Part shown: positions 47,177 to 64,000 of the stretch, in pieces
Layout of the letters: each line of letters starts with the position of its first letter
How positions within the stretch are numbered: position 1 is the stretch's first letter
Source of the DNA: Candidatus Methylomirabilis tolerans
GTDB taxonomy: Bacteria > Methylomirabilota > Methylomirabilia > Methylomirabilales > Methylomirabilaceae
Direction of reading: 5' to 3'
Assembly (NCBI GenBank): GCA_019912425.1
Contig: JAIOIU010000102.1
Location: forward strand, 37,655 to 101,654
DNA length: 64,000 nucleotides
Translations under genes and position numbers: made by a program
The notes under the pieces: model-generated
Databases searched by the model: none
Told to the model about the DNA's origin: nothing
The model's input: the letters and a program-made list of their open reading frames with translations, nothing else

Positions 47177-47210
47177 CTTCGGTCCCTCTCTCCTTAAGGC
47201 AGCTATCAGC

Positions 47211-47836: not shown

Positions 47837-49099
47837 TCACACGTCGCTCGCCGAAGATGAGAGTGGATCGGTAAACAGCCGGACGGCAAGCGAAGAGTCG
47901 CGACCGTTTCCTGTTCCCTCGGCCAGCCAGGAGCGCAATGGGCCGTAGACGAGTCGCGTATAGAAGGCGAGACCCAGACGGCTCAGGAGGAGCACTGTCG
48001 AGACCGCCGTCCAGACGGTCACCGCCACTAAGCCCCAATCCGGCCGGCCAAGCGCCAAACTGCCGGTCAGCAGGAGCAGATTGGGATTGCGCCGGGCCAT
48101 CACCAGCCTGAAGTAGGAATCAAAGGGTCGCCAGCAGAAGATACTGTACCGGCCGAGCCAATATTCAAACGTGCCCTCAACAAGGCGCCCGACAATATAG
48201 CCGATAAAGATCACCCACATCGCGAGATCCAGCGTGAGCGACGGTATGCCTGGATAGAACGACTCCAACCCGCGACCCCACAATAGGTACCAAAATGGTG
48301 GATGTATCAAATCCATGATGTGGTCGAAAAAGTGACCGAATCGGGTTGACGTCACCGTGACCCGAGCGAGCTTTCCGTCTACCGTATCCAGGAAGGTCAT
48401 GCACCATGCGGCAAGAAGTCCCCACCCATACAGACCGTTCGCAAAAAGGGCGCCGGCTGCGCAAACCAGCAGTACGCTGATCGACGTGACATGATTCGGC
48501 CGTAAACCGAGGGTCACACACAGGCGCGTGGCCCATCGAGCCGGGACAGGCCAAAACCATTTTGTCACCAGGTCGGTCACGCCTTTATAGGAGTTGGAAA
48601 ATAATCGCTCCTCCAACGCCCGTTTTGTCTCGATCCTGATCGATGCCACAAACGGCGGTGCCGATTTCAGCAACGACTTATGAAACGAGGATACGCGGTC
48701 CTCAAGTCGTTCTACCCGGACGGATGGAAGGGTATTCACGCTCCTCTCTCCGGAAAGAAGAGCGCAGGCCTCTCTAACCAAATTAGCGGCTACGTGAGCC
48801 GCAACTACCCGTCGAGACGGCCCTTCCGGTACCTCAAGGATGATATTCAACGAGGCAGCCAGATCATGGAGGACCCGGCCATCGAAGAGGTAATCCCCGC
48901 GAACGATAAGCACGGAGTCACTTGGTTTCACTAAGGAAAGATCATCCGCAATAGCCGTAACCCCTGCCTGTCTCAGCACGCGTCGGTAGCGCTCGCGAGA
49001 CGATAGCCTCCACAGCGTAACCGGGGCTTCTCCAAGTATATGGGCGTAAACAGTCATTATTCTCAGTCGGCGCGCTTCCAGAAAGTCGGGCGGTGCCAC
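47837..49099 (-). CDS. CDP-alcohol phosphatidyltransferase-family membrane enzyme with a degenerate N-terminal nucleotidyltransferase-like domain
   Basis: 420 aa. The exact family motif D-x2-D-G-x2-A-R-x8-G-x3-D-x3-D is present in LDTVDGKLARVTVTSTRFGHFFDHIMD. Several TM segments. The ~150-aa soluble N-terminus lacks a clear GxGxR loop. Confidence 0.8.
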   Translation of the reverse strand: MAPPDFLEARRLRIMTVYAHILGEAPVTLWRLSSRERYRRVLRQAGVTAIADDLSLVKPSDSVLIVRGDYLFDGRVLHDLAASLNIILEVPEGPSRRVVAAHVAANLVREACALLSGERSVNTLPSVRVERLEDRVSSFHKSLLKSAPPFVASIRIETKRALEERLFSNSYKGVTDLVTKWFWPVPARWATRLCVTLGLRPNHVTSISVLLVCAAGALFANGLYGWGLLAAWCMTFLDTVDGKLARVTVTSTRFGHFFDHIMDLIHPPFWYLLWGRGLESFYPGIPSLTLDLAMWVIFIGYIVGRLVEGTFEYWLGRYSIFCWRPFDSYFRLVMARRNPNLLLLTGSLALGRPDWGLVAVTVWTAVSTVLLLSRLGLAFYTRLVYGPLRSWLAEGTGNGRDSSLAVRLFTDPLSSSASDV

Positions 49100-49199
49100 C
49101 CGGTAGTTGCCCGGTGGCCCAGCGAAATGTTCATAAAGCCGGATAGGAAACGACTAGGTATACTACTATACACAGGTCGACTTCGTCAAGATCGTGCGC

Positions 49200-50972
49200 T
49201 TACCCGGGATTACCCTTGTGCGTGATTGGAACACAACTCGGATCATAGTCATTCATGACCAAGGAAACCTCACCGTGTCGAATGCGGTAGACCCTGTCGG
49301 CGGACTCCACCATGACAGGTTGATGCGAAATGGCCAGAATCGTCAGCCGATCCAGAAGACCGCGTAACGTACGGCATATCTCAGCCGCATTTTCCGGATC
49401 GAGCGCGCTGGTCACTTCATCCAGGATCAACAGTTTGGGCCGATGCACCAGCGCCCTGGCAATCGCAATGCGTTGTCGCTGGCCTCCTGACAACATCGAA
49501 CCGCGTTCCCCAACCGAACTATAGATCCCGGATGGTCGTGCCACAACAAACTCCCAGGCGCCTGCAGCGCGCAATGCGGCTTCAGCATCAGCCTCGCTCA
49601 GATCCGGATCGCCAAGCGTCACATTCTGCAGCACTGTGTCATGGAACAGGAAGGTTTCTTGCGGCACATATCCGATCATCCTCCGCCACTGCCTCAGATC
49701 AACACTGTCCAATGACAGGTCGTCGATCCGGACATGACCTTGCTGTGGGCGCAGCAGACCCGTAAACAGATCCGCTATCGTTGTTTTCCCTGCCCCAGAT
49801 GGTCCCATAATAGCAGTAAACGACCCTACTGGAACGACCAGTGACGCATTCCACAGTACCCAGTGTTTTCCATATCCAAAGTTGACTTTATCAAGGCAAA
49901 GGGCCTTCTCCAGGTGAGGGGCCAGGCCTCCTGGCTCTGTTTCACGATCGCGGTTCGCGCTGTCAATGGCCGCTTGCAACGACCAGAAGGCACTTTCCAG
50001 GGTTCGCATTTTCTGGTATTGCCGCTGCATCTTAGCTAGACAGGTCAGCAATCGAGCAAGAAGGAACACCATAACCATCACGATATTGAACGGCATCTGC
50101 CACCGGCTAAGGGCCACATATAACCCGACAGCGATAAGGACGGCTAACAGAATCTCCTGGGAGGAGCTGAGCAGCTCGGTGCTGAGTACTTCACGCTGAA
50201 ACGCCAGGTTTAATCGCTTGGCGTTGGACTTGAGGGGAGGGCCGATCAACTCTTCACGCGCCATTGCCTTGAGGGGTTTGATGGATTGAAGGCTATCAGT
50301 CAGGCCGGCGAGAAGGGATTTTAATAAATGGGTTTGGCGGCTTCCAGCTCGATGCGCCATGCGGATGAAACGGTTGAGTCCATAGAAGATCACGATTCCG
50401 GGAACCAGGATTCCCAGGGTTGTCTTCCCCGCAACAACGAAGGCCACACATGCATACACAATCGCCTCGATAAACAGGGTCGTACTCTTGGCGCCCTCAA
50501 GATACCCCATTGAGGCTCGCATCGCTTCAGTGCCTACGGCATTAGCGAAGCTTCCGACAGGTTGGCGTACGTAATACTCCCACCGAGCGGCCAGCAGAGC
50601 TTGGAGCAGCGAGAGTCGCAGTTCAGTGGCAACGTGTGTAACCGTATAGCCGACCTGGGTTTTGGCCAATAGAAGAAATACCCCTTTAGCGACCACACAG
50701 AGGACAATCACGACCAACAATGTACCGACTGTCGGCCTGAGTCCGACGACTGAAAGGGCTTGCGTCAGGATACGCTGCGCGCCGGATGGGATCACACCGG
50801 TTCCAAAGGTCTTTTCACCGGTCGCCATGCTCAGCATCGGAAGCAGAAAGAGGAGGCCGACCCCCTCCGCGATGCTGGCGAACAGCAGGCAGATCAGCGT
50901 AAGCGCGCTCCGTCGCGGATACATCCGAATGATGGTGCTTAAAAATCGCATAGCGCCACCCGACGACTTCAA
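49200..50972 (-). CDS. ABC exporter, fused permease-ATPase (MsbA/lipid-flippase type architecture)
   Basis: 590 aa. Six-TM N-terminal half. GPSGAGKTT, LSGGQRQRIAIARAL, LILDEVTSALD. Confidence 0.85.
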   Translation of the reverse strand: MKSSGGAMRFLSTIIRMYPRRSALTLICLLFASIAEGVGLLFLLPMLSMATGEKTFGTGVIPSGAQRILTQALSVVGLRPTVGTLLVVIVLCVVAKGVFLLLAKTQVGYTVTHVATELRLSLLQALLAARWEYYVRQPVGSFANAVGTEAMRASMGYLEGAKSTTLFIEAIVYACVAFVVAGKTTLGILVPGIVIFYGLNRFIRMAHRAGSRQTHLLKSLLAGLTDSLQSIKPLKAMAREELIGPPLKSNAKRLNLAFQREVLSTELLSSSQEILLAVLIAVGLYVALSRWQMPFNIVMVMVFLLARLLTCLAKMQRQYQKMRTLESAFWSLQAAIDSANRDRETEPGGLAPHLEKALCLDKVNFGYGKHWVLWNASLVVPVGSFTAIMGPSGAGKTTIADLFTGLLRPQQGHVRIDDLSLDSVDLRQWRRMIGYVPQETFLFHDTVLQNVTLGDPDLSEADAEAALRAAGAWEFVVARPSGIYSSVGERGSMLSGGQRQRIAIARALVHRPKLLILDEVTSALDPENAAEICRTLRGLLDRLTILAISHQPVMVESADRVYRIRHGEVSLVMNDYDPSCVPITHKGNPG

Positions 50973-51174
50973 ATAGGGTTGATCGCAGAGCAGGAACCTT
51001 GACGATGCTGGGGAATTCCACGTACAACTCGGTACGCTGGCCGGCTCAGATTATCCCTAATGTCCAGGCCCGCACCATTTGAGCTGATATGAGGGTACCA
51101 ACACCCAAAACGGATCGATCTACAGTTATTCGGCTATCTCCAAAGACGGAGGTTATGGAGGTAGTCGGGTTGGT

Positions 51175-52533
51175 TTATGCGAGCCGGACCTCGAAGATGT
51201 CCTCGTGTCGGCGCCTTACTTCTACCGGGCGCAAAGCCCCGGTGATCCTCCGCAACCGCTCCGCTCGCTCCTGAAGGGCCGAGACTTCCAGGCGCGGGAA
51301 ACGCTGCCGATTGTACTCCACGCTATGGCGAGGGCTGCCGGAGCGCTGTTTCCGACGCCGTTTGATGCTTCGTACTTCGGCCTTGATTATGCCGGAGAGG
51401 CGTAGCGGGATACGGGTAAGACCCGCATAGGGGGAGCGGCGTGGGAGGAGCTTGATCAACCGAGCCGAGGCCAGCCCGTTGTCGAACCCATAGATGAAGC
51501 GGTCGACAAGACGGCGGCGGGCGCCGCCCGGATCGGGGTCGAAATCAGGGTTGCGGATGGCCGCGATGACCTCATCGGCAGTACGACACCGCGGACCCAG
51601 TTCATTGGGGAATCGGAGTTCATGGCGTGGGTCCTCGATGGGAGTATAGGGTATGATGCGCGTGCCGAGGAGAAAACCCTCTACCGCGGTTGTACACCCG
51701 CACTGGATCAGGCAATTGGACGCTATGAGCCAGGGCACCACGTTCCCCTCATGGCGAACGGAGACGTTTGGATACGTCGCGAGGAGCGTTCGCCAGAAGT
51801 CGTGGTTCTCGGCGGGGTGGGGCCTCAGCACGATCCGCCGGTCGGGGAACGCCCGCGCGACCGCCGGGATGAGGGCCTGGAAGGCCTCGAACACCACCCG
51901 CTTGTAGTGGAAGAGCCCGCGGGCGAACTCGTCCGGCATCCCGAGAGACCAATGTCCACGCACCCATTCTCCGTTCTTCATATATAGGAGGTTCAGGGTC
52001 TCGTGATAGCCGTTGACGTGGTTGAAGTTCGTATTGAAGAGGATAAAGTCGCCGAATTCCCGACGCAGTTCGTCCACCCGATCCTGAAAGAGTGTGCGCA
52101 TCTCCGGTCGCAGAATATCCGCTCGCGGGTTACCGAGGACTCGGACTGCCTCCCGTCGGCAAGCGGGATGGCCATAGAAGAGGTCGCGGTTATCCTCGCC
52201 CCACGCCACAAGCAGGTCGATCAGATCGAAGGCGTCCTTCGCAATGCGACGAGCGTAATAGATATCCGGCGCGTAGTGAGCGACCGCCTCCTCATCCCAT
52301 GCGATGATGTAGTGGCCAATCCGCCGTATGATGTGCAGCATCTTCATGCTGGGCTCCGTCAGCGACTTGGCGATGTAGAGACTCGGGGGGAAACGGCCAA
52401 TCCGTTCGTGGATGCGCCATTTGGCGCCGATGATGCTCGTCCAGCCCTCTTGAGCGGCGAGAACAGCTACAAGCAGCTTGGCATCCAGCTCGCGAACCTG
52501 GTTCTCGACCGGAATGATTAAGAGCGGCTTCAT
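51175..52533 (-). CDS. uncharacterised surface-carbohydrate biosynthesis protein, candidate glycosyltransferase
   Basis: 452 aa, soluble. MKPLLIIPVENQVRELDAKLL... Two Rossmann-like halves by hydrophobic pattern, basic C-terminal tail. From memory it resembles families found beside NeuB genes, but no catalytic motif could be verified by eye. Confidence 0.4.
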   Translation of the reverse strand: MKPLLIIPVENQVRELDAKLLVAVLAAQEGWTSIIGAKWRIHERIGRFPPSLYIAKSLTEPSMKMLHIIRRIGHYIIAWDEEAVAHYAPDIYYARRIAKDAFDLIDLLVAWGEDNRDLFYGHPACRREAVRVLGNPRADILRPEMRTLFQDRVDELRREFGDFILFNTNFNHVNGYHETLNLLYMKNGEWVRGHWSLGMPDEFARGLFHYKRVVFEAFQALIPAVARAFPDRRIVLRPHPAENHDFWRTLLATYPNVSVRHEGNVVPWLIASNCLIQCGCTTAVEGFLLGTRIIPYTPIEDPRHELRFPNELGPRCRTADEVIAAIRNPDFDPDPGGARRRLVDRFIYGFDNGLASARLIKLLPRRSPYAGLTRIPLRLSGIIKAEVRSIKRRRKQRSGSPRHSVEYNRQRFPRLEVSALQERAERLRRITGALRPVEVRRRHEDIFEVRLA

Positions 52534-52837
52534 CTGCCGGCTTCCCTCCCGATGGCCTTCTCCTTGTTCATTCGGAATAACTCCTCGGGCATATTACGGC
52601 TTGTCCGTTCAAGAACGCATTGTTCGGCCAATCCGAGCAACAGTACACTGATCTGGCTTAAGCAGACGCTAGATCGAAGCCGAACGCTTGAATGGCGACC
52701 CAACTTTCTTCTGAATACGCCGTATGCTTTACCGTTTCTACGGTCTGTTGCGTAAAATTAGGCATTGCGGCACCTACCATCTCAACGAAGTGGGATCCCT
52801 AATTCGTGATGCACAATCTTCATCAGATATAGAGCCA

Positions 52838-54784
52838 TTAGGGCCTATTGCAGCCTGAGGCGGAATCACGACTCTTTAATATCCTTGCGGCAAGGGAAGC
52901 GCCATCGAGTCCATGATATTTCAGCACCTCTGACGGTGTTCCCCATGCCGGGTATCCTTCAATGCCAAACTTTTGGAAATGCCGATTATCCATCACGTGA
53001 GAAGCCGTGAGTGTGTTGAGAAGTGTATCGCCCAATCCGCCCACAGGCGCATGATCTTCCAGTACAAACAGAGCACGACATGTATCGATAACCTCTTGTA
53101 ACCAGTCCGTGTGCACCCGGTTGATCCAGGGCATGTTGACCACTTTCAGGTGAAAGCCGCTCTCGCGTAAGATTTCGGCAGCCAATAATGCCTCATGAAG
53201 CATGATGGGTCCGTATGCGAACAGGACGGCATCGCGTCCATCCACCAGTGTGACGCCACGCCCAGGCTCTAGTCGGTAGCCTTGGGGCAATTCGATGATG
53301 CGTGGCGAGGGGCCGATGACAAGCCTCAATACGCAGCTTTCCTCTGCTTCTTTCACGCAATATTCAACCGCCATCCGTGTCTCCGCGGCATTGCAGGGCT
53401 GGATCACGACAAGGTTCGGTAGCGCCCCAACAAGGGAGATATCCCGGATGCTCTGGTGCGATTGGCCGGGTCCGGCAGGGATCAGGCCAGCGTAGTGGCA
53501 GACGTAGATAATCTTGGTCTGCTCGCACGCATTATTATAGATCTGCTCGTTGGCTCGCGAAGCCAAGAAGGCTGCAAAGGTGTTCACCACGGGCAGCAGT
53601 CCCTGGAGCGCCAGTCCGCCGGCCATCGACACCATATCCTGCTCGGCAATCCCATTCTCGATAAAGCGTTCGGGGTAGGTGAGCTCAAAGGCGCGAATGC
53701 GACAGTCGGCGGCCAGATCGGCATCCAACACCACGAGTTCCTCCCGTTCGGCGGCGATGTCCACGAGCGCCCGGCCAAAGGCGTCGGCGACGTATTCGCT
53801 AGACACGGCCTTAGCGCCCTTGTCTTCCTGGGTAAGCTCTTCCATTGCGAGCGGCAACAGCCCCAGTCTCTCCATGCGCGCCTGAATGCGCGTCACGATT
53901 TCCTGGTAGGCATCGGTAAAGGATCGATCATCCGGGGCGCCGGAATGCCAACGATAGAGCCCACCGCCGGTCTTCAGGGCCGTTGGGTGCTCCATAAACG
54001 ACACGCCGCGGCCCTTAATGGTATCGGCAATGAGGACCTTGGGCGTGTCGGTAATCGCCTTGAACTCAGCAAACACCTTCTCCAGTTGTCGAAAATCATG
54101 CCCATCGCAGCGAGCCACGTGCCATCCAAAAGTCCGCAACTTGGTTTCCAGATCGCCTAGATCGCAGATGTCACGGACGGGCTTATCCGACTGTACCTTG
54201 TTGTGATCGATGATCAGACTGATATTCGCGATTCGCTGATGAGCCGCCGCCTGTAACGCTTCGTAGACCTGACCCTCCTGCATTTCGCCGTCGCCGTTCA
54301 TCACGAACACGCGCCCCTGATGACATCTCAGGCGCTTCGCAAAGGCCATGCCCTTCGCCTTGGAGATGCCCATCCCCAGTGAGCCGGAGTTGGCCTCGAT
54401 ACCGGATGTGCTGACATCGGGATGTCCGCACGTTCCCTCCAGCCTTCTGAGTGTGGTGAACTGCTCCTTCGGAAGAATGCCCAAAGAAAACAGGATAGCG
54501 TACTGACCGGGCACATCATGGCCTTTCGAGGAGAAGTAGATATCACGATCGGGATGCTCGACGCCGACAGTGACGGTATTCATTTCCGCATAGTACAACC
54601 ACACAACAATGTCCATCGCGCTGAAGCTTGAGCCCAGGTGTCCGGAGCCGGCACGCTTGACGGAGGCCAGCGTGTTGGCCCGGCACATATCAGCGATCAG
54701 CGCAAGCCTGTCATATTGATCAATTGCGGCCGCACGGACGCGTTGAAACTCTTCCAACGGGATAAGCGTGACCATATGAAGCAT
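52838..54784 (-). CDS. transketolase-family ThDP enzyme (N- and C-terminal halves fused in one polypeptide)
   Basis: 648 aa. GSGHLGSSFS, NGDGEMQEGQVYEA ThDP-binding motif, a pyrimidine-binding half with FENGIAEQDM, and a C-terminal domain. Confidence 0.8.
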   Translation of the reverse strand: MLHMVTLIPLEEFQRVRAAAIDQYDRLALIADMCRANTLASVKRAGSGHLGSSFSAMDIVVWLYYAEMNTVTVGVEHPDRDIYFSSKGHDVPGQYAILFSLGILPKEQFTTLRRLEGTCGHPDVSTSGIEANSGSLGMGISKAKGMAFAKRLRCHQGRVFVMNGDGEMQEGQVYEALQAAAHQRIANISLIIDHNKVQSDKPVRDICDLGDLETKLRTFGWHVARCDGHDFRQLEKVFAEFKAITDTPKVLIADTIKGRGVSFMEHPTALKTGGGLYRWHSGAPDDRSFTDAYQEIVTRIQARMERLGLLPLAMEELTQEDKGAKAVSSEYVADAFGRALVDIAAEREELVVLDADLAADCRIRAFELTYPERFIENGIAEQDMVSMAGGLALQGLLPVVNTFAAFLASRANEQIYNNACEQTKIIYVCHYAGLIPAGPGQSHQSIRDISLVGALPNLVVIQPCNAAETRMAVEYCVKEAEESCVLRLVIGPSPRIIELPQGYRLEPGRGVTLVDGRDAVLFAYGPIMLHEALLAAEILRESGFHLKVVNMPWINRVHTDWLQEVIDTCRALFVLEDHAPVGGLGDTLLNTLTASHVMDNRHFQKFGIEGYPAWGTPSEVLKYHGLDGASLAARILKSRDSASGCNRP

Positions 54785-54805
54785 CAGAAGGACATTGGCA
54801 TAAAA

Positions 54806-55588
54806 TTATGCGAATATCCCATCATTCCTGAATTTCTCCATCAGTTTTTCAACAATAAAAAAATCAATAGGAGAATCGATATCAATAGCCCGCTCCTGGG
54901 GGATGATATGATATCGCACAAAATCTCCAGTAAGAGAAGCGGTCTCGTAAATGACATTCGTACGACAGGCTATGACATTCGAACGAAAGTAGGCTTTTTC
55001 ATAATGTTGCCTCGCAATCGGTGTGACCTCTCTACCGCTTTCCGTGAAGTATGTAACCAGGTGCTGACCGCCCTTTCCATCGTTAATCAGTTTCAGGGCT
55101 TTTAGTGGATGCTGGCGTGCTTCCGCAATCACCACAGCCGATTGTGCCAACGGATCTTTTAAGAGTTCTTCAATACAGGAGTCAATATCTTCCGGCATCT
55201 GCAGAGGAACCGTTGTCATCATACGTACGACGATATCCGGTTTATATTGTTCATACTCCATCAACCATTCCACCATATGCTTGACGTATTCCCATTCCGG
55301 TGAATGGTCGGCCGCAAGTTCCTTTGGGCGAAGATATGGGACGTCCGCGCCGTATCGTCGTGCAATTGCCGCGTACTCTTCCGAATCAGTGGATACTATG
55401 ACGCGGTTAACATACCTCGACGCCTTAGCCGTTTCAATGATCCAGGCTATCAATGGTTTTTCCATGAGTAAGCGGATGTTTTTATGGGGGACTCCTTTGG
55501 AGCCGGAACGGGCCCCAATAATGCCCAGAATCTTCAGATCCGGATATCTGTCTACACGCATGGGCGCAATCGCGTACCCGATGGCCAT
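54806..55588 (-). CDS. CMP-sugar-acid cytidylyltransferase (acylneuraminate/KDO cytidylyltransferase family, CTP_transf_3)
   Basis: 260 aa. GIIGARSGSKGVPHKNIRLL P-loop-like motif, VIVSTDSEEYAAIARRYGA, RPKELAADHSP. Confidence 0.8.
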   Translation of the reverse strand: MAIGYAIAPMRVDRYPDLKILGIIGARSGSKGVPHKNIRLLMEKPLIAWIIETAKASRYVNRVIVSTDSEEYAAIARRYGADVPYLRPKELAADHSPEWEYVKHMVEWLMEYEQYKPDIVVRMMTTVPLQMPEDIDSCIEELLKDPLAQSAVVIAEARQHPLKALKLINDGKGGQHLVTYFTESGREVTPIARQHYEKAYFRSNVIACRTNVIYETASLTGDFVRYHIIPQERAIDIDSPIDFFIVEKLMEKFRNDGIFA

Positions 55589-55613
55589 GCACCGGATAAC
55601 CCTTCTACACGTA

Positions 55614-56543
55614 TCATCTAATCCTTTCCATGATCATTGTGTAGACTTCTTGAATCGCAGGACACGGAACATGGTGCAACTTTGCCAGTCTCAAAATTGC
55701 GCCTGGAATAGCATCGACTTCCGAGGGGATACGTTTTCCAATATCGCGCTGAAGCGAGGTGGTGAGCGTTGGTGGTAGTGCATCAATCTGATGCATCACC
55801 GCCTCGGGATCGATCTTCACTCCCTCCTTGCGTGCCACTGCTACCCCCTCTCCGACACAGCCTTCTAACTTACGGCGCCATACCGGGTCTTGACGGATGA
55901 AACCAATCGTCTCTTGGCTGGCGGCAGTTGTCGAAGCGATCGCGTTGAGGCGAGCCAATTTTCGCCAAATGACTTCGGCTTCTCGATTACATACAAGAGT
56001 CTCAACCCCCATTCGCGACAAGAATTCACCGATGCGACACAAGTCCTTTTTGGGAATATCGTGATTTGAGGCTAACTCGATATGAGGGGCGTGACGCGAG
56101 GAATGAATTATATGATTCCAGCCGACCTTGACGGCCTCTATCGCACCGATCATACCGACTGCCACCCGGTTTCCCACACGTTCGCGAATGGCAGAAACAT
56201 GCTCGAACCCATTAAGAAGCGGGATCACCACGGAATTCGAAACGAGCGCCCTTGAAACCAACCCGAGCGCATCGTTCAAGAAAGGAGCTTTTACAGCAAT
56301 AAACAAGAGATCTGGCTCATAATTAAGCTGGTGGACGGCTTGAGGGTATGCCAACACCTCTCCAAATCGAGCGCTCTCCAGGCGTATGCCATGCTCATTA
56401 ATGACGCGTACCTGTTCTGGCTTGCCGATACAGGTTACCAACACACCCTGTTTCCAGAATATCGAGGCCAGAAACCCACCTATAGCGCCGAGGCCGAGTA
56501 TTGCCACGGATGGCTCTGCTTTATTTTGGCCAGGGGTGTTCAC
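55614..56543 (-). CDS. ketopantoate-reductase-family (ApbA/PanE) 2-oxoacid/oxosugar reductase
   Basis: 309 aa. VAILGLGAIGGFLA Rossmann motif. Family-typical ..PLLNG.., with ST.QD-like TTSLQRD near the C-terminus. Confidence 0.7.
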   Translation of the reverse strand: MNTPGQNKAEPSVAILGLGAIGGFLASIFWKQGVLVTCIGKPEQVRVINEHGIRLESARFGEVLAYPQAVHQLNYEPDLLFIAVKAPFLNDALGLVSRALVSNSVVIPLLNGFEHVSAIRERVGNRVAVGMIGAIEAVKVGWNHIIHSSRHAPHIELASNHDIPKKDLCRIGEFLSRMGVETLVCNREAEVIWRKLARLNAIASTTAASQETIGFIRQDPVWRRKLEGCVGEGVAVARKEGVKIDPEAVMHQIDALPPTLTTSLQRDIGKRIPSEVDAIPGAILRLAKLHHVPCPAIQEVYTMIMERIR

Positions 56544-57726
56544 GGATTACTTGTTCATTAACCTCAGTTCCCCATCCAGGCCCTGTCGGGACGTGGAGAT
56601 ATCCATTCTCAATGCGTGGAGGATTGGTAAAGAGATCCTCTCGCCACGGCACATCATCAACATCGATCTCCATGATCCTGAGGTTAGGGATCATCGCACA
56701 AAATTGGGCGCTGATGAAAGTCGACAAATACCCATTATAATTGTGTGGAGTGACATTCATCTCGTACAGTTCTGCCGCATCAGATATTTTCTTTGATTGC
56801 GCAAACCCGTTCCAGATGATATCAACGCTTGCAACGTCCATCGCGTGTTTCTCAAAGTACGGCCGGTACTGCCGCATCCCGTACAAATTCTCGCCACTGC
56901 ATACGGGAGTATTGATAGAATTTCTGATCTGTACAAGAGCCTCAGGGTCGTACGAATCTATCTCAAGCCACAGCAGGCCAAATTGCTCCAGCATCTTTCC
57001 GATCTTAATGTACCCTTCCGTCCTAAAATTGAAATTGAGGTCCAAGATAATATCGATTGTGTTACCTACTGCAGCGCGTAACACACCAACCCAGTCCTCA
57101 ACAGCCCGCAGCAACGGTCTATCTGCGTTCAACTCCGGCCCGCCCGAACTCTTGAGAAACCCGGGCATATAGACATACGGATCGTCGCCCACAATTCCGA
57201 TATTCGTTTTTATTGCCCTATAACCACTGGCAAGTATCTCTTGACCAAATCGCTTGACATCATCAAAAGACTTAATCTGTTCCCTGCAGACTATCCGCCA
57301 AGCGCGAATCCGCGTCGTTCCACAGTGCGACCAGTACAGTGGTATTTTTTCTCGTAACGGTCCCCCAAAAAGCTCATACACCGATAAGCCAAGCGCTTTT
57401 GCTTTTATATCAAGCAAAGCATTCTCAATGCCTCCAATGGCTTTCTGAACTATGCTTCCGGGACTTTGACGAGTCCTGGAATACATATCCCAATAGAGTT
57501 TCTCGGTGACACGGGGATCTTGACCTATCAGAAGCGGCGACAAATCTCTCACAACTCCCTCTAGGCCCCTAGGAGAACCGTGTGAATCAGTACATTCGCT
57601 CCATCCAATGATTCCCTGATCGGTCCTGACCTTAATAAACGTCCATGGTCTCCAGCCGGCGTCGCAATGTAGTGTTTCAACGCTGACAATCTTCATATCG
57701 TATCCCGCACACGACCACTCAATCAT
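56521..57726 (-). CDS. enolase-superfamily enzyme (mandelate racemase / sugar-acid dehydratase type)
   Basis: 401 aa. MKIVSVETLHCDAGWRPWTFIKVRTDQGIIGWSECT capping domain. ...IENALLDIKAKALG. Barrel with metal-ligand-like D/E positions (LDLNF.., WLEIDS..). The start may be ATG 57696. Confidence 0.75.
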   Translation of the reverse strand: MIEWSCAGYDMKIVSVETLHCDAGWRPWTFIKVRTDQGIIGWSECTDSHGSPRGLEGVVRDLSPLLIGQDPRVTEKLYWDMYSRTRQSPGSIVQKAIGGIENALLDIKAKALGLSVYELFGGPLREKIPLYWSHCGTTRIRAWRIVCREQIKSFDDVKRFGQEILASGYRAIKTNIGIVGDDPYVYMPGFLKSSGGPELNADRPLLRAVEDWVGVLRAAVGNTIDIILDLNFNFRTEGYIKIGKMLEQFGLLWLEIDSYDPEALVQIRNSINTPVCSGENLYGMRQYRPYFEKHAMDVASVDIIWNGFAQSKKISDAAELYEMNVTPHNYNGYLSTFISAQFCAMIPNLRIMEIDVDDVPWREDLFTNPPRIENGYLHVPTGPGWGTEVNEQVIREHPWPK

Positions 57727-57735
57727 CGACCCTTC

Positions 57736-59208
57736 CTACAGTTTGGTGGGGTCGGTGCTGATGTAGATATCTTTTAACTCTGAATAGACGTCCAACGCCT
57801 CTGTGCCGGGCTCGCGTGAGCCGTTTCCCGATTGCTTCAGACCGCCAAAAGGCATGTGGGGTTCGCTTCCATAGGTTCCGGCATTCACGATGGCCACCCC
57901 GGCCTGTACCTTTTGTGTGAACTGGATCGCTCGATGCAAGTTGCGGGTATGGATGCAGGCTGTCAGTCCATAGAGAGAATCGTTCGCGAGGGCCAGAGCC
58001 TCTGCGAAATCCTTGACGCGATACAGGCAGGCAATCGGACCAAACAACTCTGTTGATGAGATATCATCGTGTGCCCCCACATTCTCAATGATCGTGGGCG
58101 TCATGTAAAAGCCGTTGCGGTGTGGTAGATCGGTCAGCCTGTGCCCTCCGGCGAGAACGGCGGCGCCCTTCTGTCGCGCCCCTTCGATCGCATCGAGCAT
58201 ACGGGTGAGCTGCTTCTCGTTTATTACAGGACCAAGATCATCGTCATCGGTCGGTCCGACCTTGAGTTGCTTCGCGCCTGTTACGACCATGTCGCGAAAC
58301 CGGTCATAGACGGCGTCAAAGACGATGATCCGGCTCCCCGACGCGCAACGCTGTCCGGCATTGCTGAAGGCTGAAAGCAACGCCCACCTGGCCGCGTTCT
58401 CCAGATCGGCATCGTCGCACACGACGAACGGGTTCTTGCCGCCTAGTTCAAGTGATACCTTCGCCAAGCGCTCGCCCGCAACCCGCTGGATGGAGCGTCC
58501 GACCGCGGTCGAGCCGGTAAAACTGATCACCCCTACGTCAGGGTGTTCCACGAGCGGCGCGCCCGCTTCTTCTCCATACCCCTGGATGATATTGAGCAGA
58601 GCGGCAGGTAGACCCGCCTCCTGAGCGATGTGACCGACAATCCAGGCAGTCGCCGGCGTATCTTCTGCCGCTTTCAGTACAACGGCGTTACCGCAGATCA
58701 AGGCCGGAAAGATCTTCCAGGCTACATTGGCAATCGGAGTATTGGCAGGCACAATCAGACCGGCGATACCGATCGGCTGACGTATGGTCATGGCAGACCG
58801 ATCAGGAATCCCGCTGGTTGTCGTGCGACCATACAACCGCTGTCCCTCGCCGGCATAAAACAGCCCCAACGCAATCGCTCCACCAGTCTCGGCATACGCA
58901 TCTTTGTACGACTTGCCGGTCTCTAACGCGACGATTTGCGCAATCTCCCGCTGCCGCGCCTCCATTCCAAGGACGATTTTATGTAAGAGCATTCCACGCT
59001 GAACGGGCGGGGTATCCGCCCAGGAGGGTTGAGCCCGCTTGGCGGCTTTGACCGCCTGATGCACATCCTCAGCCAGTGACCGAGTTACGCGGCACGCCAC
59101 CCGACCATCGGCAGGATTCAGCTTGTCAAACCACTCACATGAGATGGCTGGACGCTGCCGTCCATCAATCCAGTTCGGGATCTCCGCTGGGAAGAGCCTT
59201 GTCCCCAT
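57736..59208 (-). CDS. NAD(P)-dependent aldehyde dehydrogenase
   Basis: 490 aa. FTGSTAVG, LELGGKNP, catalytic Cys region NAGQRCASGSRI, and the EEAFGP variant STELFGP. Confidence 0.88.
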   Translation of the reverse strand: MGTRLFPAEIPNWIDGRQRPAISCEWFDKLNPADGRVACRVTRSLAEDVHQAVKAAKRAQPSWADTPPVQRGMLLHKIVLGMEARQREIAQIVALETGKSYKDAYAETGGAIALGLFYAGEGQRLYGRTTTSGIPDRSAMTIRQPIGIAGLIVPANTPIANVAWKIFPALICGNAVVLKAAEDTPATAWIVGHIAQEAGLPAALLNIIQGYGEEAGAPLVEHPDVGVISFTGSTAVGRSIQRVAGERLAKVSLELGGKNPFVVCDDADLENAARWALLSAFSNAGQRCASGSRIIVFDAVYDRFRDMVVTGAKQLKVGPTDDDDLGPVINEKQLTRMLDAIEGARQKGAAVLAGGHRLTDLPHRNGFYMTPTIIENVGAHDDISSTELFGPIACLYRVKDFAEALALANDSLYGLTACIHTRNLHRAIQFTQKVQAGVAIVNAGTYGSEPHMPFGGLKQSGNGSREPGTEALDVYSELKDIYISTDPTKL

Positions 59209-59214
59209 TGTCGT

Positions 59215-60033
59215 TTACCAGGCCGTCCACCCGCCGTCAATAATGACGTTTGCTCCGGTCATATACGATGAGGCGTCAGAGACCAAAAAGGTGATGGCCC
59301 CGTTGTATTCATCCTCGTGCGCCATCCGCCCGAGCGGAACTCGCGCAGCATAGTTTGCGAGGAACTGTTCATTCTGGTTGTTAAACACCCCGCCGAGGGT
59401 AAGGGTATTGGCCCGTACGTTGTTGCCTGCCCAATATGTCGCAAGATAACGGGTCAGGTTGAGAAGCGCGGACTTGGAGGCAGAATAGGCCGCCGGCTTG
59501 ACAAACGGTGTTCCGCCTGCGCGGCGATATTCATAGATGCGCTGATCAGGGGCGACCATCCCATAGATGGAGCCGATGTTGATGATCGAGCCGCGGCCGG
59601 ATCCAGCCATCTGTCCTCCTACGACCTGGCAGCAGAGGAAGGCGCCTTTCACGCCGACCTCCATCACCTTGTCCCACGAGCTTTCCGGGTAGTGCTCAAA
59701 AGGTCCGTTTTCCTCTGCCGGCGCATTGGGTGGAGCATCAAGGGCCGCATTATTGATCAACGCATGGGGCACGCCCCACTTCGCATTGACCTGACTCAAA
59801 CCGGCCTCAATCGAGCGTCGTTGCGTGATATCCACTTGTACGAACATGAGGTTCTCGTCGTTGCGTCGCCCCGCAAACCGTTCGGTGACCCGTTGCTCGT
59901 CAACCTGGATATCGAAGATAGCGACCTTGGCTCCCCGATCCGCCAGCGCGAGGCTGAACCGGCGACCGAGCTGCCCAAGCCCGCCGGTGACAATGGCAAT
60001 CTTCTCCTGTACGCTAAAGAGGTCTTGAGCCAT
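59215..60033 (-). CDS. short-chain dehydrogenase/reductase
   Basis: 272 aa. VTGGLGQLG cofactor motif, NNAA, YSASKSAL catalytic Y-x3-K. Confidence 0.85.
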   Translation of the reverse strand: MAQDLFSVQEKIAIVTGGLGQLGRRFSLALADRGAKVAIFDIQVDEQRVTERFAGRRNDENLMFVQVDITQRRSIEAGLSQVNAKWGVPHALINNAALDAPPNAPAEENGPFEHYPESSWDKVMEVGVKGAFLCCQVVGGQMAGSGRGSIINIGSIYGMVAPDQRIYEYRRAGGTPFVKPAAYSASKSALLNLTRYLATYWAGNNVRANTLTLGGVFNNQNEQFLANYAARVPLGRMAHEDEYNGAITFLVSDASSYMTGANVIIDGGWTAW

Positions 60034-60041
60034 TCAAGCGG

Positions 60042-60569
60042 CTACTCCCGTTGCTGCGGCGCCAGAATACGCTCGAAGAGATCGCAGACCTCACGCACCG
60101 CTCCATGGCCGCCGCGCGCCTTCGTTTGATACAGGGCGTAGGGGAGCACATCCGGATGGGCGTCCTGGACGACAATGGGGAGCTTGACACACATCAGGCA
60201 TGGCATGTCATTGACGTCGTTACCGACGAACGCCGTTTGCGCCAGGGAGAGGCCCATCTCCTGGACGCGGGTTTCAAGCGCCGCGCGTTTATCTTTGCAT
60301 CCTTGAAGGCACTGAATGCCCAGCTTCCTGCCGCGAGCTGAGACAACCGGATTCGTCTCCGTCGAGACGATGAGCGTTGCAAGTCCAAGCCGTTCGAGCC
60401 GTTGCAGTCCCAGGCCGTCGCCACGAGAGCACCGTACCGCCTCGCGACCGTCTTCAAAGACGTACACCATGTTATCGGTGAACACCCCGTCGAAGTCAAA
60501 GACCACCAAGCGTATCTCACGGATGCGCTCCTCAAGGAAGCGGACCTTAGGCATTGTTGCGCTGTCCAT
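60042..60569 (-). CDS. HAD-superfamily KdsC-type phosphatase (ulosonate-phosphate phosphatase)
   Basis: 175 aa. LVVFDFDGVFTDN, ..GDGLG.., FVGNDVNDMP, typical of the KDO8P/KDN9P/Neu5Ac9P phosphatase family. Confidence 0.8.
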   Translation of the reverse strand: MDSATMPKVRFLEERIREIRLVVFDFDGVFTDNMVYVFEDGREAVRCSRGDGLGLQRLERLGLATLIVSTETNPVVSARGRKLGIQCLQGCKDKRAALETRVQEMGLSLAQTAFVGNDVNDMPCLMCVKLPIVVQDAHPDVLPYALYQTKARGGHGAVREVCDLFERILAPQQRE

Positions 60570-61630
60570 TACCCTTCAGCGCCTGTCAGGTCCTCGAACG
60601 AGATATTCTCGTCCGCATTCAGGCGGCGACGGAGCGCCTGTCCGATGACATGTTCGAGTTCGAAAGGCGGCACGCCGTCGCTCGGCGATTTGATGGCGAT
60701 ATCGTCCCGTGTCAAGACGTGGCCGGTCGGTAACTCATGGGCCGCGACAAGCTTCTTGCCCATCTTGAACAGCGGTTTGTCCTCGCCGGGAAGCGGCCGC
60801 TTTTTTCCGTCACCCAAGGCGGCGCGTACTCGATGTAGGTCCCGCACCAGCTTCTGTAGGCCGATCGGCTCCAGAGAGAAGGCGTGGTCTGTTCCCTTCC
60901 AGGCGCGATTCAGGGTGAAGTGCTTTTCGATGACCTGCGCGCCCAGGACATTCGCCATCAGGGCCATAGCGATCCCGTTTTGATGATCCGAGAGTCCGAT
61001 CACCACATCCGGGAATCGCTCGCGGTAGGTCATAATCACACGTAAGTTCATGTCTTGAGGCTCGACCGGGTAACTCGCCGTCGATTGCAGGAGACACAGT
61101 TGTGGGTTGATCGGCATAATCGTATCGTACGCGCGTTGTACATCCTCGATGGTGCCCCCACCAGTACTGACGATCATCGGCTTACCAATCCAGGCGACGT
61201 ATGTGAGGAACGGCGTATTCTTCAGATCCCCTGATGCAATCTTGAAGGCCGGCATATCGAGTTCTGCCAGAAAGTCGGCGCTCACGAAGTCGAAGGCCGT
61301 GGCAAACATCGTCACACGTAATTCGTTCGCATAGCGCTTCAGCTCACAATACTCCTCCCTCCCAAATTCCAACGCCTCGCGATGAGCGCCATACGTGGGA
61401 CCGAAGCTGTTCTCGTTGTTGTAGGGCATATCGTAGATTGCGCGTGTGTACAGCGAGCGATTATCACGTTTCTGTAGTTTGACGGCGTTCACGCCACACT
61501 GTTTGGCGACACGAAACATCTCCTTAGCCTGTTCCAGGCTACCCTGGTGATTGTGACCGATCTCAGCGATGACGTAGCAGTCGCTGTCGTCGTGAATATG
61601 ATCGGATCCGATAGTCAAATTCCGCGGCAT
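60569..61630 (-). CDS. NeuB-family sialic-acid-type (ulosonic acid) synthase with C-terminal SAF domain
   Basis: 353 aa. CYVIAEIGHNHQGSLEQAKEMFRVAKQCGVNAVKLQKR, ..SDHQNG.., EKHFTL, and a C-terminal SAF-like LTRDDIAIKSP. Confidence 0.88.
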   Translation of the reverse strand: MPRNLTIGSDHIHDDSDCYVIAEIGHNHQGSLEQAKEMFRVAKQCGVNAVKLQKRDNRSLYTRAIYDMPYNNENSFGPTYGAHREALEFGREEYCELKRYANELRVTMFATAFDFVSADFLAELDMPAFKIASGDLKNTPFLTYVAWIGKPMIVSTGGGTIEDVQRAYDTIMPINPQLCLLQSTASYPVEPQDMNLRVIMTYRERFPDVVIGLSDHQNGIAMALMANVLGAQVIEKHFTLNRAWKGTDHAFSLEPIGLQKLVRDLHRVRAALGDGKKRPLPGEDKPLFKMGKKLVAAHELPTGHVLTRDDIAIKSPSDGVPPFELEHVIGQALRRRLNADENISFEDLTGAEG

Positions 61631-61750
61631 AAAACCTATTCTCCCTCCCTATACATAATGTGCCGACTCCCCCGACGGTGGCACGGACAGAAGGAAGTGC
61701 GTCTGACGGGGAAGAGCATCGATCGATGATGCCGATGGCTTCGAGCGACG

Positions 61751-62938
61751 TTACACGGAGGACGCTGTCTTGATGGACGCGAAGGCCTCACAGATACGGT
61801 TGATCTGGTCAGGGGTATGCGCCGCACTGACACTGCATCGGAGCAGGCTCCCCCCATCTGGGGCGGCCGGCGGCAAGATCATATTTACGTAAACGTCTTG
61901 GCGGAGAAGACCGTTCCAGAAGGCAATCGTATCTTCCGCCTGTTCGAACCGTACTGCTATGATCGGACTGGGTTCCGGGCTAAGCCTGAATCCTAACCCC
62001 TTTAACCAATCGAACAATCGTTGCGCATTCGTCCAGAGCTTCATACGCAGCTCAGGTTCTGTTTGGAGTCTTCGCAGAGCAACCCTCGTGGAAGCAATCA
62101 CTGAGGGACATGGGGATGCGGTGAAAATATACGGACGGCTCGCATACCTGATCAGTTCCATCACGGGATGATCCGAGACGCAGAATCCACCGGTAGCGCC
62201 AAGACTCTTGCTGAAGGTCCCGACGATAAAATCGACGCTACCCTCGACGCCGGCCTCTTCGGAGCGCCCGCGGCCCCGTTCCCCCAAGACTCCGAGCGAG
62301 TGAGCTTCGTCTACGAGCAGATAGGCGCCATGCTCCTGTTTCAAGGCTGCTATCTCCACCAGCGCTGCGCGATCCCCCAACATACTATAAATGCCTTCCG
62401 CGATGATCAGCGTATTAGGACAACGCTTCCCCAGACGTGTTAGACGCTTATGGAGGTCGGCCGTATCGTTGTGGCGAAACCGAATAATCTCAGCGCCGCT
62501 CATCCGGCAGCCATCATAGATACTCGCATGACAGTCGGCATCGATCAGGATCACGTCGCCATGGCCCGCGAGCGCCGAAATCACTCCAAGGTTAGCCAGA
62601 TAGCCGGTCGAAAAGACATCACACCATCGACGTCCATAAAATTCGGCCAGCTCTTGCTCTAACGCAAGGTGTCCACTAAAATTACCATTCGCCATTCTGG
62701 AACCGGTGGTACCGGTTCCTTGCTCCCGTACAGCGTTGACCGCGGCATCAATACACTCAGGGTCGAACGTTAATCCCAGGTAGTTATTCGTCCCTGCCAG
62801 GATCACCTGCCGGCCGTTCACGATAGCTTCAGTCGGCGACACAAGGCGCTCAATCGTCACACGAAAGGGATCCTCGCTTACCCGCGCTAACGACGTCCGG
62901 GCGTCAGCCAACTGTCTAAATTTCTTGAGAAGGGCCAT
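61751..62938 (-). CDS. alpha-oxoamine synthase, serine-palmitoyltransferase-like
   Basis: 395 aa. GTNNYLGLTFDP...GTGTTGSRMANG, STGYLANLG, RFRHND, PLP-lysine GTFSKSLG, RPYIFTAS, YVNMILPPAAPDGGSLLRCSVSAAHT. From memory this tracks bacterial SPT more closely than BioF or Kbl. Confidence 0.75.
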   Translation of the reverse strand: MALLKKFRQLADARTSLARVSEDPFRVTIERLVSPTEAIVNGRQVILAGTNNYLGLTFDPECIDAAVNAVREQGTGTTGSRMANGNFSGHLALEQELAEFYGRRWCDVFSTGYLANLGVISALAGHGDVILIDADCHASIYDGCRMSGAEIIRFRHNDTADLHKRLTRLGKRCPNTLIIAEGIYSMLGDRAALVEIAALKQEHGAYLLVDEAHSLGVLGERGRGRSEEAGVEGSVDFIVGTFSKSLGATGGFCVSDHPVMELIRYASRPYIFTASPCPSVIASTRVALRRLQTEPELRMKLWTNAQRLFDWLKGLGFRLSPEPSPIIAVRFEQAEDTIAFWNGLLRQDVYVNMILPPAAPDGGSLLRCSVSAAHTPDQINRICEAFASIKTASSV

Positions 62939-63186
62939 TACCTCGGCTCCAGGAGTTGCTCAATCTGCCTGGCGAAATCTCCAATAGTCCGTACGTCCGA
63001 GACGATGTTTAAAGGAATAGAAATGTCGAATCGTTCCTCTACCTCGAGCAATAGTTCCATGACCTTCAGCGAATCGAGATCGAGATCGGCGACGAGCTCT
63101 GTCTCTTCCGAAAGGGTCTGTCCGTTCTGCCCATGCGGTCGCAGGATTTCGTAGAGTTGCGGCAGTATTGCCTCGTAGTGAGCCAT
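62938..63186 (-). CDS. acyl carrier protein
   Basis: 82 aa. The phosphopantetheine site DLDLDSLKVMELLLEVEERF. The TAATG junction overlaps the SPT-like start. Confidence 0.85.
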   Translation of the reverse strand: MAHYEAILPQLYEILRPHGQNGQTLSEETELVADLDLDSLKVMELLLEVEERFDISIPLNIVSDVRTIGDFARQIEQLLEPR

Positions 63187-63236
63187 CTGTGAGTCAGCCT
63201 GACGTATATTGGGTTAGGCGGCCGCCCTTATCCTGG

Positions 63237-64000
63237 TCAGGGAAGGCCAAAAGTAAGTCGCAGACCTTCTTCCAAACGCACCTTTGGCGTCCAGCCGGAA
63301 ACCCGGGAGAACGGGATGCTGTCGCAGGTCCAGTCCGGATGTCTGAACTCCCGCACCTTCCCAGGGGTGAACATCGGCGCATATCCTATCATAGATGCGA
63401 CCATCTTGTTGAGCCACGCAATGATATTCATGATCAGCTCAGGCACCCGGAAAGAGAATACCCGTTTTCCCCGAAGTTGCTGGACGGTCTTGATGACCTC
63501 ATGCCAAGTATATCCCTTGGGATACCCATCATCCAACTCGAACGCGTGCTTCTCTCGGACATTGCCCTTCAGCCATTGTATCACGGCCTCCGCAAGGTCT
63601 TCTACGTAGAGTAAGGAGAATCTGGCGTCTTGTCTGCCTAGTATGGGAGCGATCCCATACAGCATCAGGCGAAGCAGGGGACGTATTGCGCGGTCCTCCG
63701 GGCCATAGACCACCGGGGGGCGAAGGGCGGTCCAGGGAAGATCGGCTACTGCGGCTACGGCAAGCTCCCCCAACCGCTTACTGGCTGCGTAGGGCGATAA
63801 TTCCGGCTCTCGAGCCGCCAACGATGATATTAAGAGAAACCGGGGTACGGGACTTCGGCCTGCGGTAATATGCGCCAACCGTGAGACCGCCTCAACATTT
63901 GTTCGATAAAAGTCGGCCTCGGTAATCCCCCGTACTACCCCTGCGCAGTGGATTACGGCATCCACTTCGTCCACCAGGCTTTCGAGACAATTGCGATCTT
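63237..64000 (-). CDS. NAD-dependent epimerase/dehydratase-family reductase (extended SDR), N-terminus beyond window
   Basis: Frame is open to base 64000 (..LESLVDEVDAVIHCAG). Catalytic YAASK. A long C-terminal substrate domain. Confidence 0.8.
   Translation of the reverse strand, partial: DRNCLESLVDEVDAVIHCAGVVRGITEADFYRTNVEAVSRLAHITAGRSPVPRFLLISSLAAREPELSPYAASKRLGELAVAAVADLPWTALRPPVVYGPEDRAIRPLLRLMLYGIAPILGRQDARFSLLYVEDLAEAVIQWLKGNVREKHAFELDDGYPKGYTWHEVIKTVQQLRGKRVFSFRVPELIMNIIAWLNKMVASMIGYAPMFTPGKVREFRHPDWTCDSIPFSRVSGWTPKVRLEEGLRLTFGLP

Follow-up and report, generated by a model that had tools for sequence, protein, structure and literature searches.

Known systems

The known routes to cytidine monophosphate (CMP)-activated ulosonic acids lead to 3-deoxy-D-manno-octulosonate (Kdo), N-acetylneuraminic acid (Neu5Ac), 2-keto-3-deoxynononic acid (KDN), legionaminic acid (Leg) and pseudaminic acid (Pse). 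A pathway of this kind appears to be encoded by an operon at 52838-61630 on the minus strand of a 64,000-nucleotide stretch of the genome of the methane oxidiser Candidatus Methylomirabilis tolerans (contig JAIOIU010000102.1; hereafter the window). It is a variant of the CMP-ulosonic acid theme, and its placement, in a slot of a sphingolipid gene cluster, is new. Its closest counterparts are the KDN route of Bacteroides thetaiotaomicron and the animal route through Neu5Ac-9-phosphate, with which it shares a NeuB synthase that lacks Arg314 and carries Asp134, a phosphatase of the KdsC family, activation with CMP and the lack of the epimerase NeuC. Unlike these routes, it has a non-orthologous phosphatase and additional enzymes: a short-chain dehydrogenase/reductase (SDR), an aldehyde dehydrogenase (ALDH), a transketolase-like (TK-like) enzyme and, in this strain, an enolase-superfamily (MR_MLE) enzyme and a ketopantoate-reductase-like (KPR) enzyme.

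The surrounding genes resemble a second described system, the ceramide locus of Caulobacter crescentus (spt, acp, cerR, an acyl-ACP synthetase and bCerS, with the head-group proteins CpgA-D). Common to both are a core of serine palmitoyltransferase (Spt), acyl carrier protein (ACP), the reductase CerR, an acyl-AMP ligase and a GNAT-family protein, a CpgA-like CDP-alcohol transferase and, just outside the window, CpgD-like nucleotidyltransferases of the COG1213 type. In contrast to Caulobacter, the stretch examined revealed no ceramide kinase, and a variable glycan slot is present; here the slot holds the CMP-ulosonic acid operon, whereas Caulobacter is without one. A NeuB-like identity for Caulobacter cpgA was considered and is wrong, since the published head-group genes encode a CDP-alcohol transferase, a kinase and a nucleotidyltransferase. 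An aminoglycosphingolipid of Chlorobium is said to contain neuraminic acid. This lipid may be a precedent for the arrangement discussed here (Jensen 1991, cited in PMC11762602). The literature yielded no paper linking Methylomirabilis with sphingolipids, none on a cassette of NeuB, SDR, ALDH, cytidylyltransferase and TK, and no account of bacterial heptulosaric acid biosynthesis.

A third ulosonic acid route in the genome

The minus strand of the window between 42 and 64 kb was examined together with 15 kb past the window end, in an assembly that is 99.96 % complete. All genes of the 42-64 kb run lie on the minus strand as intact open reading frames, and the nearest loci, about 90 % identical, belong to metagenome-assembled genomes (MAGs) of Candidatus Methylomirabilis, in the phylum NC10. 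An earlier interpretation made from the letters of the DNA alone (the sequence-only reading) had noted that NeuC and amino-sugar enzymes are missing. This holds for NeuC, sugar aminotransferases and sugar N-acetyltransferases throughout the region examined, and a search of the whole genome with PF02350 (UDP-GlcNAc 2-epimerase, NeuC/WecB) gave nothing above the cut-off (best score 22 bits). The pyridoxal phosphate-dependent enzyme just upstream of NeuB is Spt, not a sugar aminotransferase.

Other ulosonic acid genes are found elsewhere. A complete pseudaminic acid cluster lies on a separate contig (C139), where PseB, PseC, PseG, PseI and a Pse methylase all exceed their equivalog cut-offs; true KdsC is located on contig C10 (174.3 bits), and a KdsB-like cytidylyltransferase also occurs elsewhere in the genome. 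Because these genes stand apart from it, the operon at 52838-61630 is a third, separate ulosonic acid route, beside those to Kdo and pseudaminic acid. The Pse cluster (L078:6561-18246, minus strand) also includes a cytidylyltransferase and a PglK-like ABC exporter, and a 747-aa protein joins PseG to a formyltransferase domain, a fusion suggestive of an N-formylated Pse derivative. A very weak third NeuB-family match (26 bits) falls in a 347-aa open frame on contig C64.

A NanS-like synthase and its coupled phosphatase

The first gene of the operon encodes a NeuB-family, NanS-like ulosonate synthase of 353 aa (60569-61630), which scores 248.6 bits on PF03102 (gathering cut-off 22.1) and 32.8 on SAF (cut-off 21). 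Its class was assigned from hidden Markov model (HMM) cut-offs and signature residues. In an alignment to Neisseria meningitidis NeuB (1xuu), the metal and catalytic residues E25, H215, E234 and H236 are kept (motifs AEIGHNH, GLSDH and EKHFT). The protein reaches 283.2 bits on the Neu5Ac/Leg synthase model TIGR03569 (cut-off 399.65) and 222.6 bits on the PseI model TIGR03586 (cut-off 340.25), on which the PseI of the same genome scores 504.1; scores below these cut-offs argue against a place among the Neu5Ac, Leg and Pse synthases. Neither this comparison nor the gene content next to the window yields what the sequence-only reading had named as its refutation. Two positions differ from the Neisseria enzyme in a telling way, E134D (SGE to SGD) and R314S (KRPGNG to KSPSDG). 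The second is occupied by Ser, Ala or Cys in cassette-type NeuB homologues of seven phyla, while the genome's own PseI retains Arg. R314 contacts the N-acetyl carbonyl of N-acetylmannosamine and is conserved in bacterial synthases but missing from the Neu5Ac-9-phosphate synthase of mammals (PMC11339185), and eukaryotic NanS carries both R314V and E134D (PMC8208679). E134D together with the loss of R314 thus gives the enzyme the signature of a NanS or KDN-9-phosphate synthase.

The stop codon of the synthase gene overlaps by one base (TAATG), as the sequence-only reading had reported, the start of a gene for a 175-aa phosphatase of the haloacid dehalogenase (HAD) superfamily, type C0, KdsC family (60042-60569). 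This protein scores 96.6 bits on TIGR01670 (cut-off 106.95), 116.6 on NF007019 (cut-off 208) and 82.6 on the KDN-9-phosphate phosphatase model NF058599 (cut-off 180); its closest solved structure is 3mmz (126 bits), and its score against the BT1713 entries (3e81 and others) is no higher than 63 bits. On these scores, the HAD is placed in the KdsC family as an orthologue of neither KdsC nor the Bacteroides KDN-9-phosphate phosphatase. Its earlier description as a KDO8P/KDN9P-type enzyme stands at the level of the family.

Taken together, the signature residues and the translational coupling to the HAD favour a phosphorylated, non-N-acetylated substrate for NeuB, presumably a sugar 6-phosphate. 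The sub-cut-off NeuB scores and the E134D and R314S changes are the reasons for proposing a non-amino route through a 9-phosphate, and the phosphorylated-intermediate, non-amino pathway first suggested for this locus is supported by them and by the coupled HAD.

Putative tailoring enzymes conserved across phyla

The gene order in the window is NeuB-HAD-SDR-ALDH-[MR_MLE-KPR-cytidylyltransferase]-TK. The end of the HAD gene (60042) and the start of the cytidylyltransferase gene (55588) are 4.45 kb apart on one strand, in agreement with the roughly 4.5 kb given before, and the genes between them are separated by 6-25 nt or overlap. The SDR oxidoreductase (272 aa, 59215-60033; adh_short_C2 148.5 bits) is the commonest NeuB partner. 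It is followed by the ALDH (490 aa, 57736-59208; PF00171 507.7 bits), whose nearest models, all at sub-cut-off scores, are alpha-ketoglutaric semialdehyde (KGSA) and 2,5-dioxovalerate dehydrogenases. The last gene of the operon encodes a single-chain TK-like enzyme dependent on thiamine diphosphate (ThDP), of 648 aa (52838-54784; Transketolase_N, pyr and C domains).

These genes belong to a cassette that is spread far beyond the genus. Related loci were collected from GTDB representative genomes, 72 in all, each with a close NeuB relative (mostly 59-90 % identity), and partner genes were counted in the 43 with at least 9 kb downstream of NeuB. An SDR is present in 41 of these, a cytidylyltransferase in 35, an ALDH in 32, a TK-like enzyme and a HAD in 23 each, and KPR-like and MR_MLE-like enzymes in 14 each; the gene order is alike in most of them. 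Where KPR and MR_MLE are present, ALDH accompanies them in all loci but one, and the exception looks frameshifted. Homologues sharing 60-90 % identity with this NeuB come from more than 10 phyla, and the loci span Acidobacteriota, Chloroflexota including SAR202, Actinomycetota (Gaiellales), Desulfobacterota, Gemmatimonadota, Planctomycetota, Latescibacterota and a Methanoregulaceae archaeon, the bacteria of these many phyla coming from soil, groundwater and marine habitats. The operon in the window has the same genes in the same order and the same altered TK pocket as this cassette; it differs from the cassette elsewhere in its sphingolipid locus, in a swapped block of MR_MLE, KPR and cytidylyltransferase genes, and in a probable transferase of the TIGR04396 family where the others have Wzy- or GT4-type enzymes. 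In loci of the Gaiellales type, a GDP-mannose 4,6-dehydratase (Gmd) gene lies directly upstream of NeuB, and GT4 and Wzy-like genes accompany it (seen at L037:4049-5092 and in a further 20 loci, most of them from Actinomycetota). The Gmd may provide a further sugar for the same glycan, or may hint at a 6-deoxy precursor.

The TK-like enzyme bears on where the tailoring steps fall. It is closest to human-type and split-chain transketolases (closest solved relative human-type, 217 bits), scores 176.4 bits on the canonical transketolase model TIGR00232 (cut-off 682) and has NF004559 as its best model (393 bits, below the cut-off of 488). The catalytic His residues, the GDG...N ThDP motif and the cofactor Glu are retained. 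Aligned to the human enzyme, R318 is replaced by Ala, S345 by Asp and R474 by Ile, three residues that we take to be phosphate-binding. All three are listed among transketolase active-site residues (PMC8016368). In the numbering of the E. coli enzyme, Ala replaces R358, Asp replaces S385 and Pro replaces D469, positions that bind phosphate or hydroxyl groups, in all 12 cassette enzymes printed, of 23 aligned; the canonical transketolase of the same genome (contig C73) is normal at these positions. This suggests that the TK-like enzyme acts on the dephosphorylated ulosonate and not in the supply of sugar phosphate to NeuB. Tailoring is placed after condensation because the TK-like enzyme is without phosphate-binding residues and because the ALDH would destroy an aldose. 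The sequence-only reading had the intervening enzymes making the sugar substrate; by this reasoning they probably act on the product of condensation instead. Its comparison with the simple Bacteroides KDN arrangement does not survive the low HAD score on the KDN-9-phosphate phosphatase model and the frequent association of SDR, ALDH and TK with NeuB across phyla. Given these conserved partners, plain KDN is an unlikely end point, and the product is probably another sugar.

A horizontally acquired block

Three genes in the middle of the operon have a different history. They encode an enolase-superfamily, acid-sugar dehydratase-like protein (401 aa, 56521-57726; MR_MLE_N and MR_MLE_C), a ketopantoate-reductase-like 2-oxoacid reductase (309 aa, 55614-56543; ApbA and ApbA_C, TIGR00745 158.8 bits) and a CMP-ulosonate synthetase (CTP_transf_3; 260 aa, 54806-55588; PF02348 84.7 bits) that reaches 122 bits on the PseF model (cut-off 205). 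The GC content at third codon positions is 0.51, 0.53 and 0.49, respectively, compared with 0.61-0.74 in the neighbouring genes. In a deltaproteobacterial groundwater MAG (L010) the cytidylyltransferase is 81 %, the KPR 52 % and the MR_MLE protein 74 % identical. Two sister genomes (G006 and L004) have the order NeuB-HAD-SDR-ALDH-cytidylyltransferase'-TK with neither KPR nor MR_MLE, and the cytidylyltransferase of the window is only 31-32 % identical to its counterpart at the same position. Composition and synteny thus mark the block as a predicted horizontal acquisition that displaced another cytidylyltransferase, and the exchange probably changes the final sugar. The cytidylyltransferase had been tied to NeuB from the start; it does lie in the same-strand run, but it came as part of the acquired block. 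The best solved relative of the MR_MLE enzyme is 2oo6, of the 2oo6/3sn0 series (387 bits), a structural-genomics entry of unassigned function named 'putative L-alanine-DL-glutamate epimerase' on deposition. Membership of the cassette may give a clue to the true substrate class of such proteins.

A variable slot in a sphingolipid locus

Directly upstream of NeuB lies spt (395 aa, 61751-62938; NF047599 620.8 bits, cut-off 500), separated from it by a gap of 120 nt that contains the ribosome-binding site GGGAGGGAG. The gene for a dedicated ACP (82 aa, 62938-63186; PP-binding 39.4 bits) overlaps the spt start by one base, a CerR-like reductase of the epimerase family (306 aa in full, PF01370) begins at 63237 and runs off the window at 64000, and a fatty acyl-AMP ligase follows past the window end (NF006624 761.9 bits, cut-off 600). 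The ceramide core has an Spt above its equivalog cut-off and an adjacent ACP, reductase and acyl-AMP ligase. A 407-aa protein encoded 7 kb past the window gives a weak GNAT match (36 bits) and may be the ceramide synthase. On the other side of the operon are a TIGR04396 protein, an MsbA/PglK-like ABC exporter (590 aa, 49200-50972; ABC_tran and ABC_membrane) and a CDP-alcohol phosphatidyltransferase (420 aa, 47837-49099; PF01066 42 bits), which belongs to the Pfam family of Caulobacter CC_1159/CpgA (PMC11324152, PMC12275187). This last protein carries about 190 extra N-terminal residues ahead of the catalytic motif and weakly resembles inositol-phosphate-type synthases. Between 3 and 9 kb past the window (L002:3168-8799) are genes for a TagF-like CDP-glycerol-type phosphotransferase, two COG1213/MobA-like nucleotidyltransferases, an FkbM methyltransferase and the 407-aa GNAT protein. 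These suggest a phospho-alcohol sphingolipid head group that is akin to ceramide diphosphoglycerate but not the same.

Presence and absence of the cassette were compared over 20 Methylomirabilis genomes and the synteny of the locus in four sister genomes; no conclusion depends on the unpublished genome G057. The frame ACP-Spt-[variable]-ABC-CDP-alcohol transferase is kept in all four sister genomes, in each of which the ABC exporter (76-91 % identity) adjoins the slot. What lies between ranges from 1.3 to 13 kb and comprises either a methyltransferase with a small protein or GT4 transferases, a sulfotransferase, an AsnB-like amidotransferase or a kinase-like protein. Spt occurs in 13 of the 20 genomes and the cassette NeuB in four, always directly after spt. 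The two genomes with the closest Spt (both 91 % identity) are divided, one having the cassette and the other not. The locus behaves like a variable glycan slot within a sphingolipid cluster, a location that is new for such a cassette. The sequence-only reading had overlooked this sphingolipid setting. Because the cassette lies in this slot, a ceramide-based acceptor is plausible, and the arrangement suggests a ceramide-linked acidic-sugar head group.

Two metatranscriptome libraries from the same bioreactor study yielded contigs that are 100 % identical to the window and cover all of 45-64 kb, and single contigs from the RNA libraries bridge the spt/NeuB and the HAD/SDR/ALDH junctions. A scan for promoters and terminators between 47 and 64 kb gave counts equal to the shuffled expectation and did not inform the operon limits, and searches of the Atlas added no named relatives. 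In a sediment metatranscriptome from a different study (X13), contigs are 95-99 % identical to the flanks (45000-50400 and 62700-64000) and almost nothing comes from 50700-62000. These may stem from a cassette-free relative with other slot content, although missing contig cover is not evidence.

A candidate transferase

The gene downstream of the operon encodes the TIGR04396 'surface carbohydrate biosynthesis protein' (452 aa, 51175-52533; 326.6 bits, cut-off 125), which has a weak match to the glycosyltransferase domain of BFO_1060. A sequence search against solved structures returned noise only. Its AlphaFold model, a confident one (predicted local distance difference test score 90.8), has the GT-B glycosyltransferase fold, and the nearest folds are TarL (Z 20.4), UDP-GlcNAc 2-epimerases (Z 19.7-19.9), NeuC (Z 18.5) and TagF (Z 16.8). 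The 452-aa protein resembles the GT-B sialyltransferases, beta-Kdo transferases and TagF/TarL, which use CMP- or CDP-linked donors, in its fold, in an HP motif at the start of the C-terminal domain and in an acidic DEE of the N-terminal domain; across 32 homologues, neither H239-P240 nor D80-E81-E82 varies. HP and D/E-D/E-G motifs are described for bacterial sialyltransferases and the HP motif for beta-Kdo transferases (PMC2169525, PMC10148158). The protein differs from these enzymes in having no detectable sequence similarity to them and in the residue that follows the acidic pair, as the third motif position is Ala and not Gly. With moderate confidence, we regard it as the predicted transferase for the CMP-sugar. 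An identity as a cryptic NeuC was rejected, since PF02350 misses the protein at E 0.001 and it belongs to TIGR04396.

Proposed pathway and alternatives

In the pathway that we propose, the NanS-like NeuB would condense phosphoenolpyruvate with a non-amino sugar phosphate, and the coupled KdsC-type HAD would strip the terminal phosphate. The SDR, the TK-like enzyme and the ALDH would then remodel the freed tail. In the version that we find likeliest, though we would claim no more than a minority chance for it, the penultimate hydroxyl may be oxidised to a ketone, the last two carbons lost by ThDP-dependent cleavage and the new aldehyde converted to a second carboxylate: the ketol made by the SDR would be the substrate for cleavage by the TK-like enzyme, and the ALDH would oxidise the aldehyde that results. 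An enolase-superfamily dehydratase requires a carboxylate next to the abstracted proton, and KPR-type enzymes reduce 2-oxo acids. In this strain, dehydration by the MR_MLE enzyme and re-reduction by the KPR, beside the new carboxylate, could bring about a net deoxygenation before the co-acquired cytidylyltransferase forms the CMP-sugar. Chances appear even that the TIGR04396 protein places this sugar on a ceramide-based lipid, which the ABC protein exports. [quoted passage not shown]

A number of observations weigh against this proposal. The HAD is absent beside NeuB in 20 of the 43 loci, the TK-like enzyme occurs without ALDH in some loci, and ALDH, KPR and MR_MLE occur without it in others. 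From these variant gene sets it follows that no single fixed pathway applies to all loci and that there are several products. The fold of the 452-aa protein does not distinguish a transferase from a TagF-like phosphotransferase or a 2-epimerase, the UDP-GlcNAc 2-epimerases equalling the GT-B transferases in score. The four cassette-bearing Methylomirabilis genomes are kin, so that four out of four is not a count of independent events, and the RNA evidence consists of contigs, which can neither prove a single transcript nor exclude DNA carry-over. Outside the genus, no spt accompanies the cassette, whose surroundings there are polysaccharide loci of the ordinary kind, with genes of the Wzy-like, GT4 and Gmd types; the lipopolysaccharide (LPS) genes LptF/G and an HldE domain II are near the operon. 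The latter is a stand-alone heptose-1-phosphate adenylyltransferase (45541-46221, 193.6 bits, above its cut-off), lengthened at its N-terminus by about 70 aa and encoded between mfd and an OmpA-family gene. Even so, the explanation as a whole, one operon for a third ulosonic acid set in a ceramide slot, seems to us somewhat better than an even bet.

The alternative that survives best keeps the sugar and changes the acceptor, which would be LPS core or O-antigen, a capsule-like polymer or a surface glycoprotein, with the adjacency of spt reflecting no more than a general envelope neighbourhood. The absence of spt from 70 of the 72 related loci, many of which have Wzy-like, GT4 and Gmd genes, speaks for it, as do the nearby LptF/G and HldE domain, the bare 'surface carbohydrate' annotation of TIGR04396 and the likeness of the ABC protein to the glycan exporters PglK and HepA. 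Yet the slot is framed by genus-constant genes (at one border Spt, ACP, CerR and acyl-AMP ligase, at the opposite border the ABC exporter and CDP-alcohol transferase), the downstream frame enzyme is from a family that serves sphingolipid head groups in Caulobacter (PMC11324152), each of the four cassette copies in the genus directly follows spt, and RNA-library contigs span the spt/NeuB junction. We consider such an acceptor rather unlikely, although it deserves to be taken seriously.

It is a good deal less probable that the operon is of the plain KDN type, in which NeuB, HAD and cytidylyltransferase make CMP-KDN or a close non-amino analogue and the SDR, ALDH, dehydratase, reductase and TK build the substrate before condensation. 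The logic of the first three enzymes is indeed that of the Bacteroides KDN route, the HAD does match the KDN-9-phosphate phosphatase model, amino-sugar enzymes are missing and sugar phosphates are the usual products of transketolases. However, the TK-like enzyme lacks two to three phosphate-binding residues family-wide while NeuB apparently needs a phosphorylated substrate, the ALDH removes the very aldehyde that NeuB requires, the enolase-type dehydratase needs a carboxylate, the order NeuB-HAD-SDR-ALDH parallels reactions that follow condensation, and the HAD score is far under its 180-bit cut-off. That the SDR, ALDH, MR_MLE, KPR and TK genes are an unrelated sugar-acid catabolic module that landed by chance between NeuB/HAD and the cytidylyltransferase can practically be discounted, for while their nearest named families are catabolic (KGSA dehydrogenase, galactonate/mannonate dehydratase, gluconate 5-dehydrogenase), SDR, ALDH and TK accompany NeuB and the cytidylyltransferase, with their order unchanged, over more than 10 phyla, the 6-25 nt spacing is that of one operon, and neither a transporter nor a regulator of the catabolic kind is encoded there.

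Implications

With the cassette, the chemistry of CMP-ulosonic acids gains a dehydrogenase, a transketolase put to a new use and an aldehyde dehydrogenase. The activated form of Dha in plants was still unidentified as of 2012 (PMC3355719), and a trimmed di-acid product, if true, would provide the first enzymology for heptulosaric sugars of the Dha type. The fullest version of our proposal, a ganglioside-like lipid in which ceramide carries an undescribed CMP-derived, doubly acidic deoxy-ulosaric head group that an O-antigen-like recombining slot makes strain-specific, is a speculative one, and we think it unlikely to be correct in every part. On that version, the cassette in other genomes would represent the earliest known biosynthesis of heptulosaric acids of the Dha type. 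The head groups of bacterial sphingolipids are still being worked out, as for the ceramide diphosphoglycerate of Caulobacter, and the organism grows in bioreactor enrichments with existing metagenomes and metatranscriptomes, which opens the head-group idea to direct lipidomics. If true, a strain-variable head-group slot that hosts a sialic-acid-like pathway would be a new principle of outer-membrane diversity.

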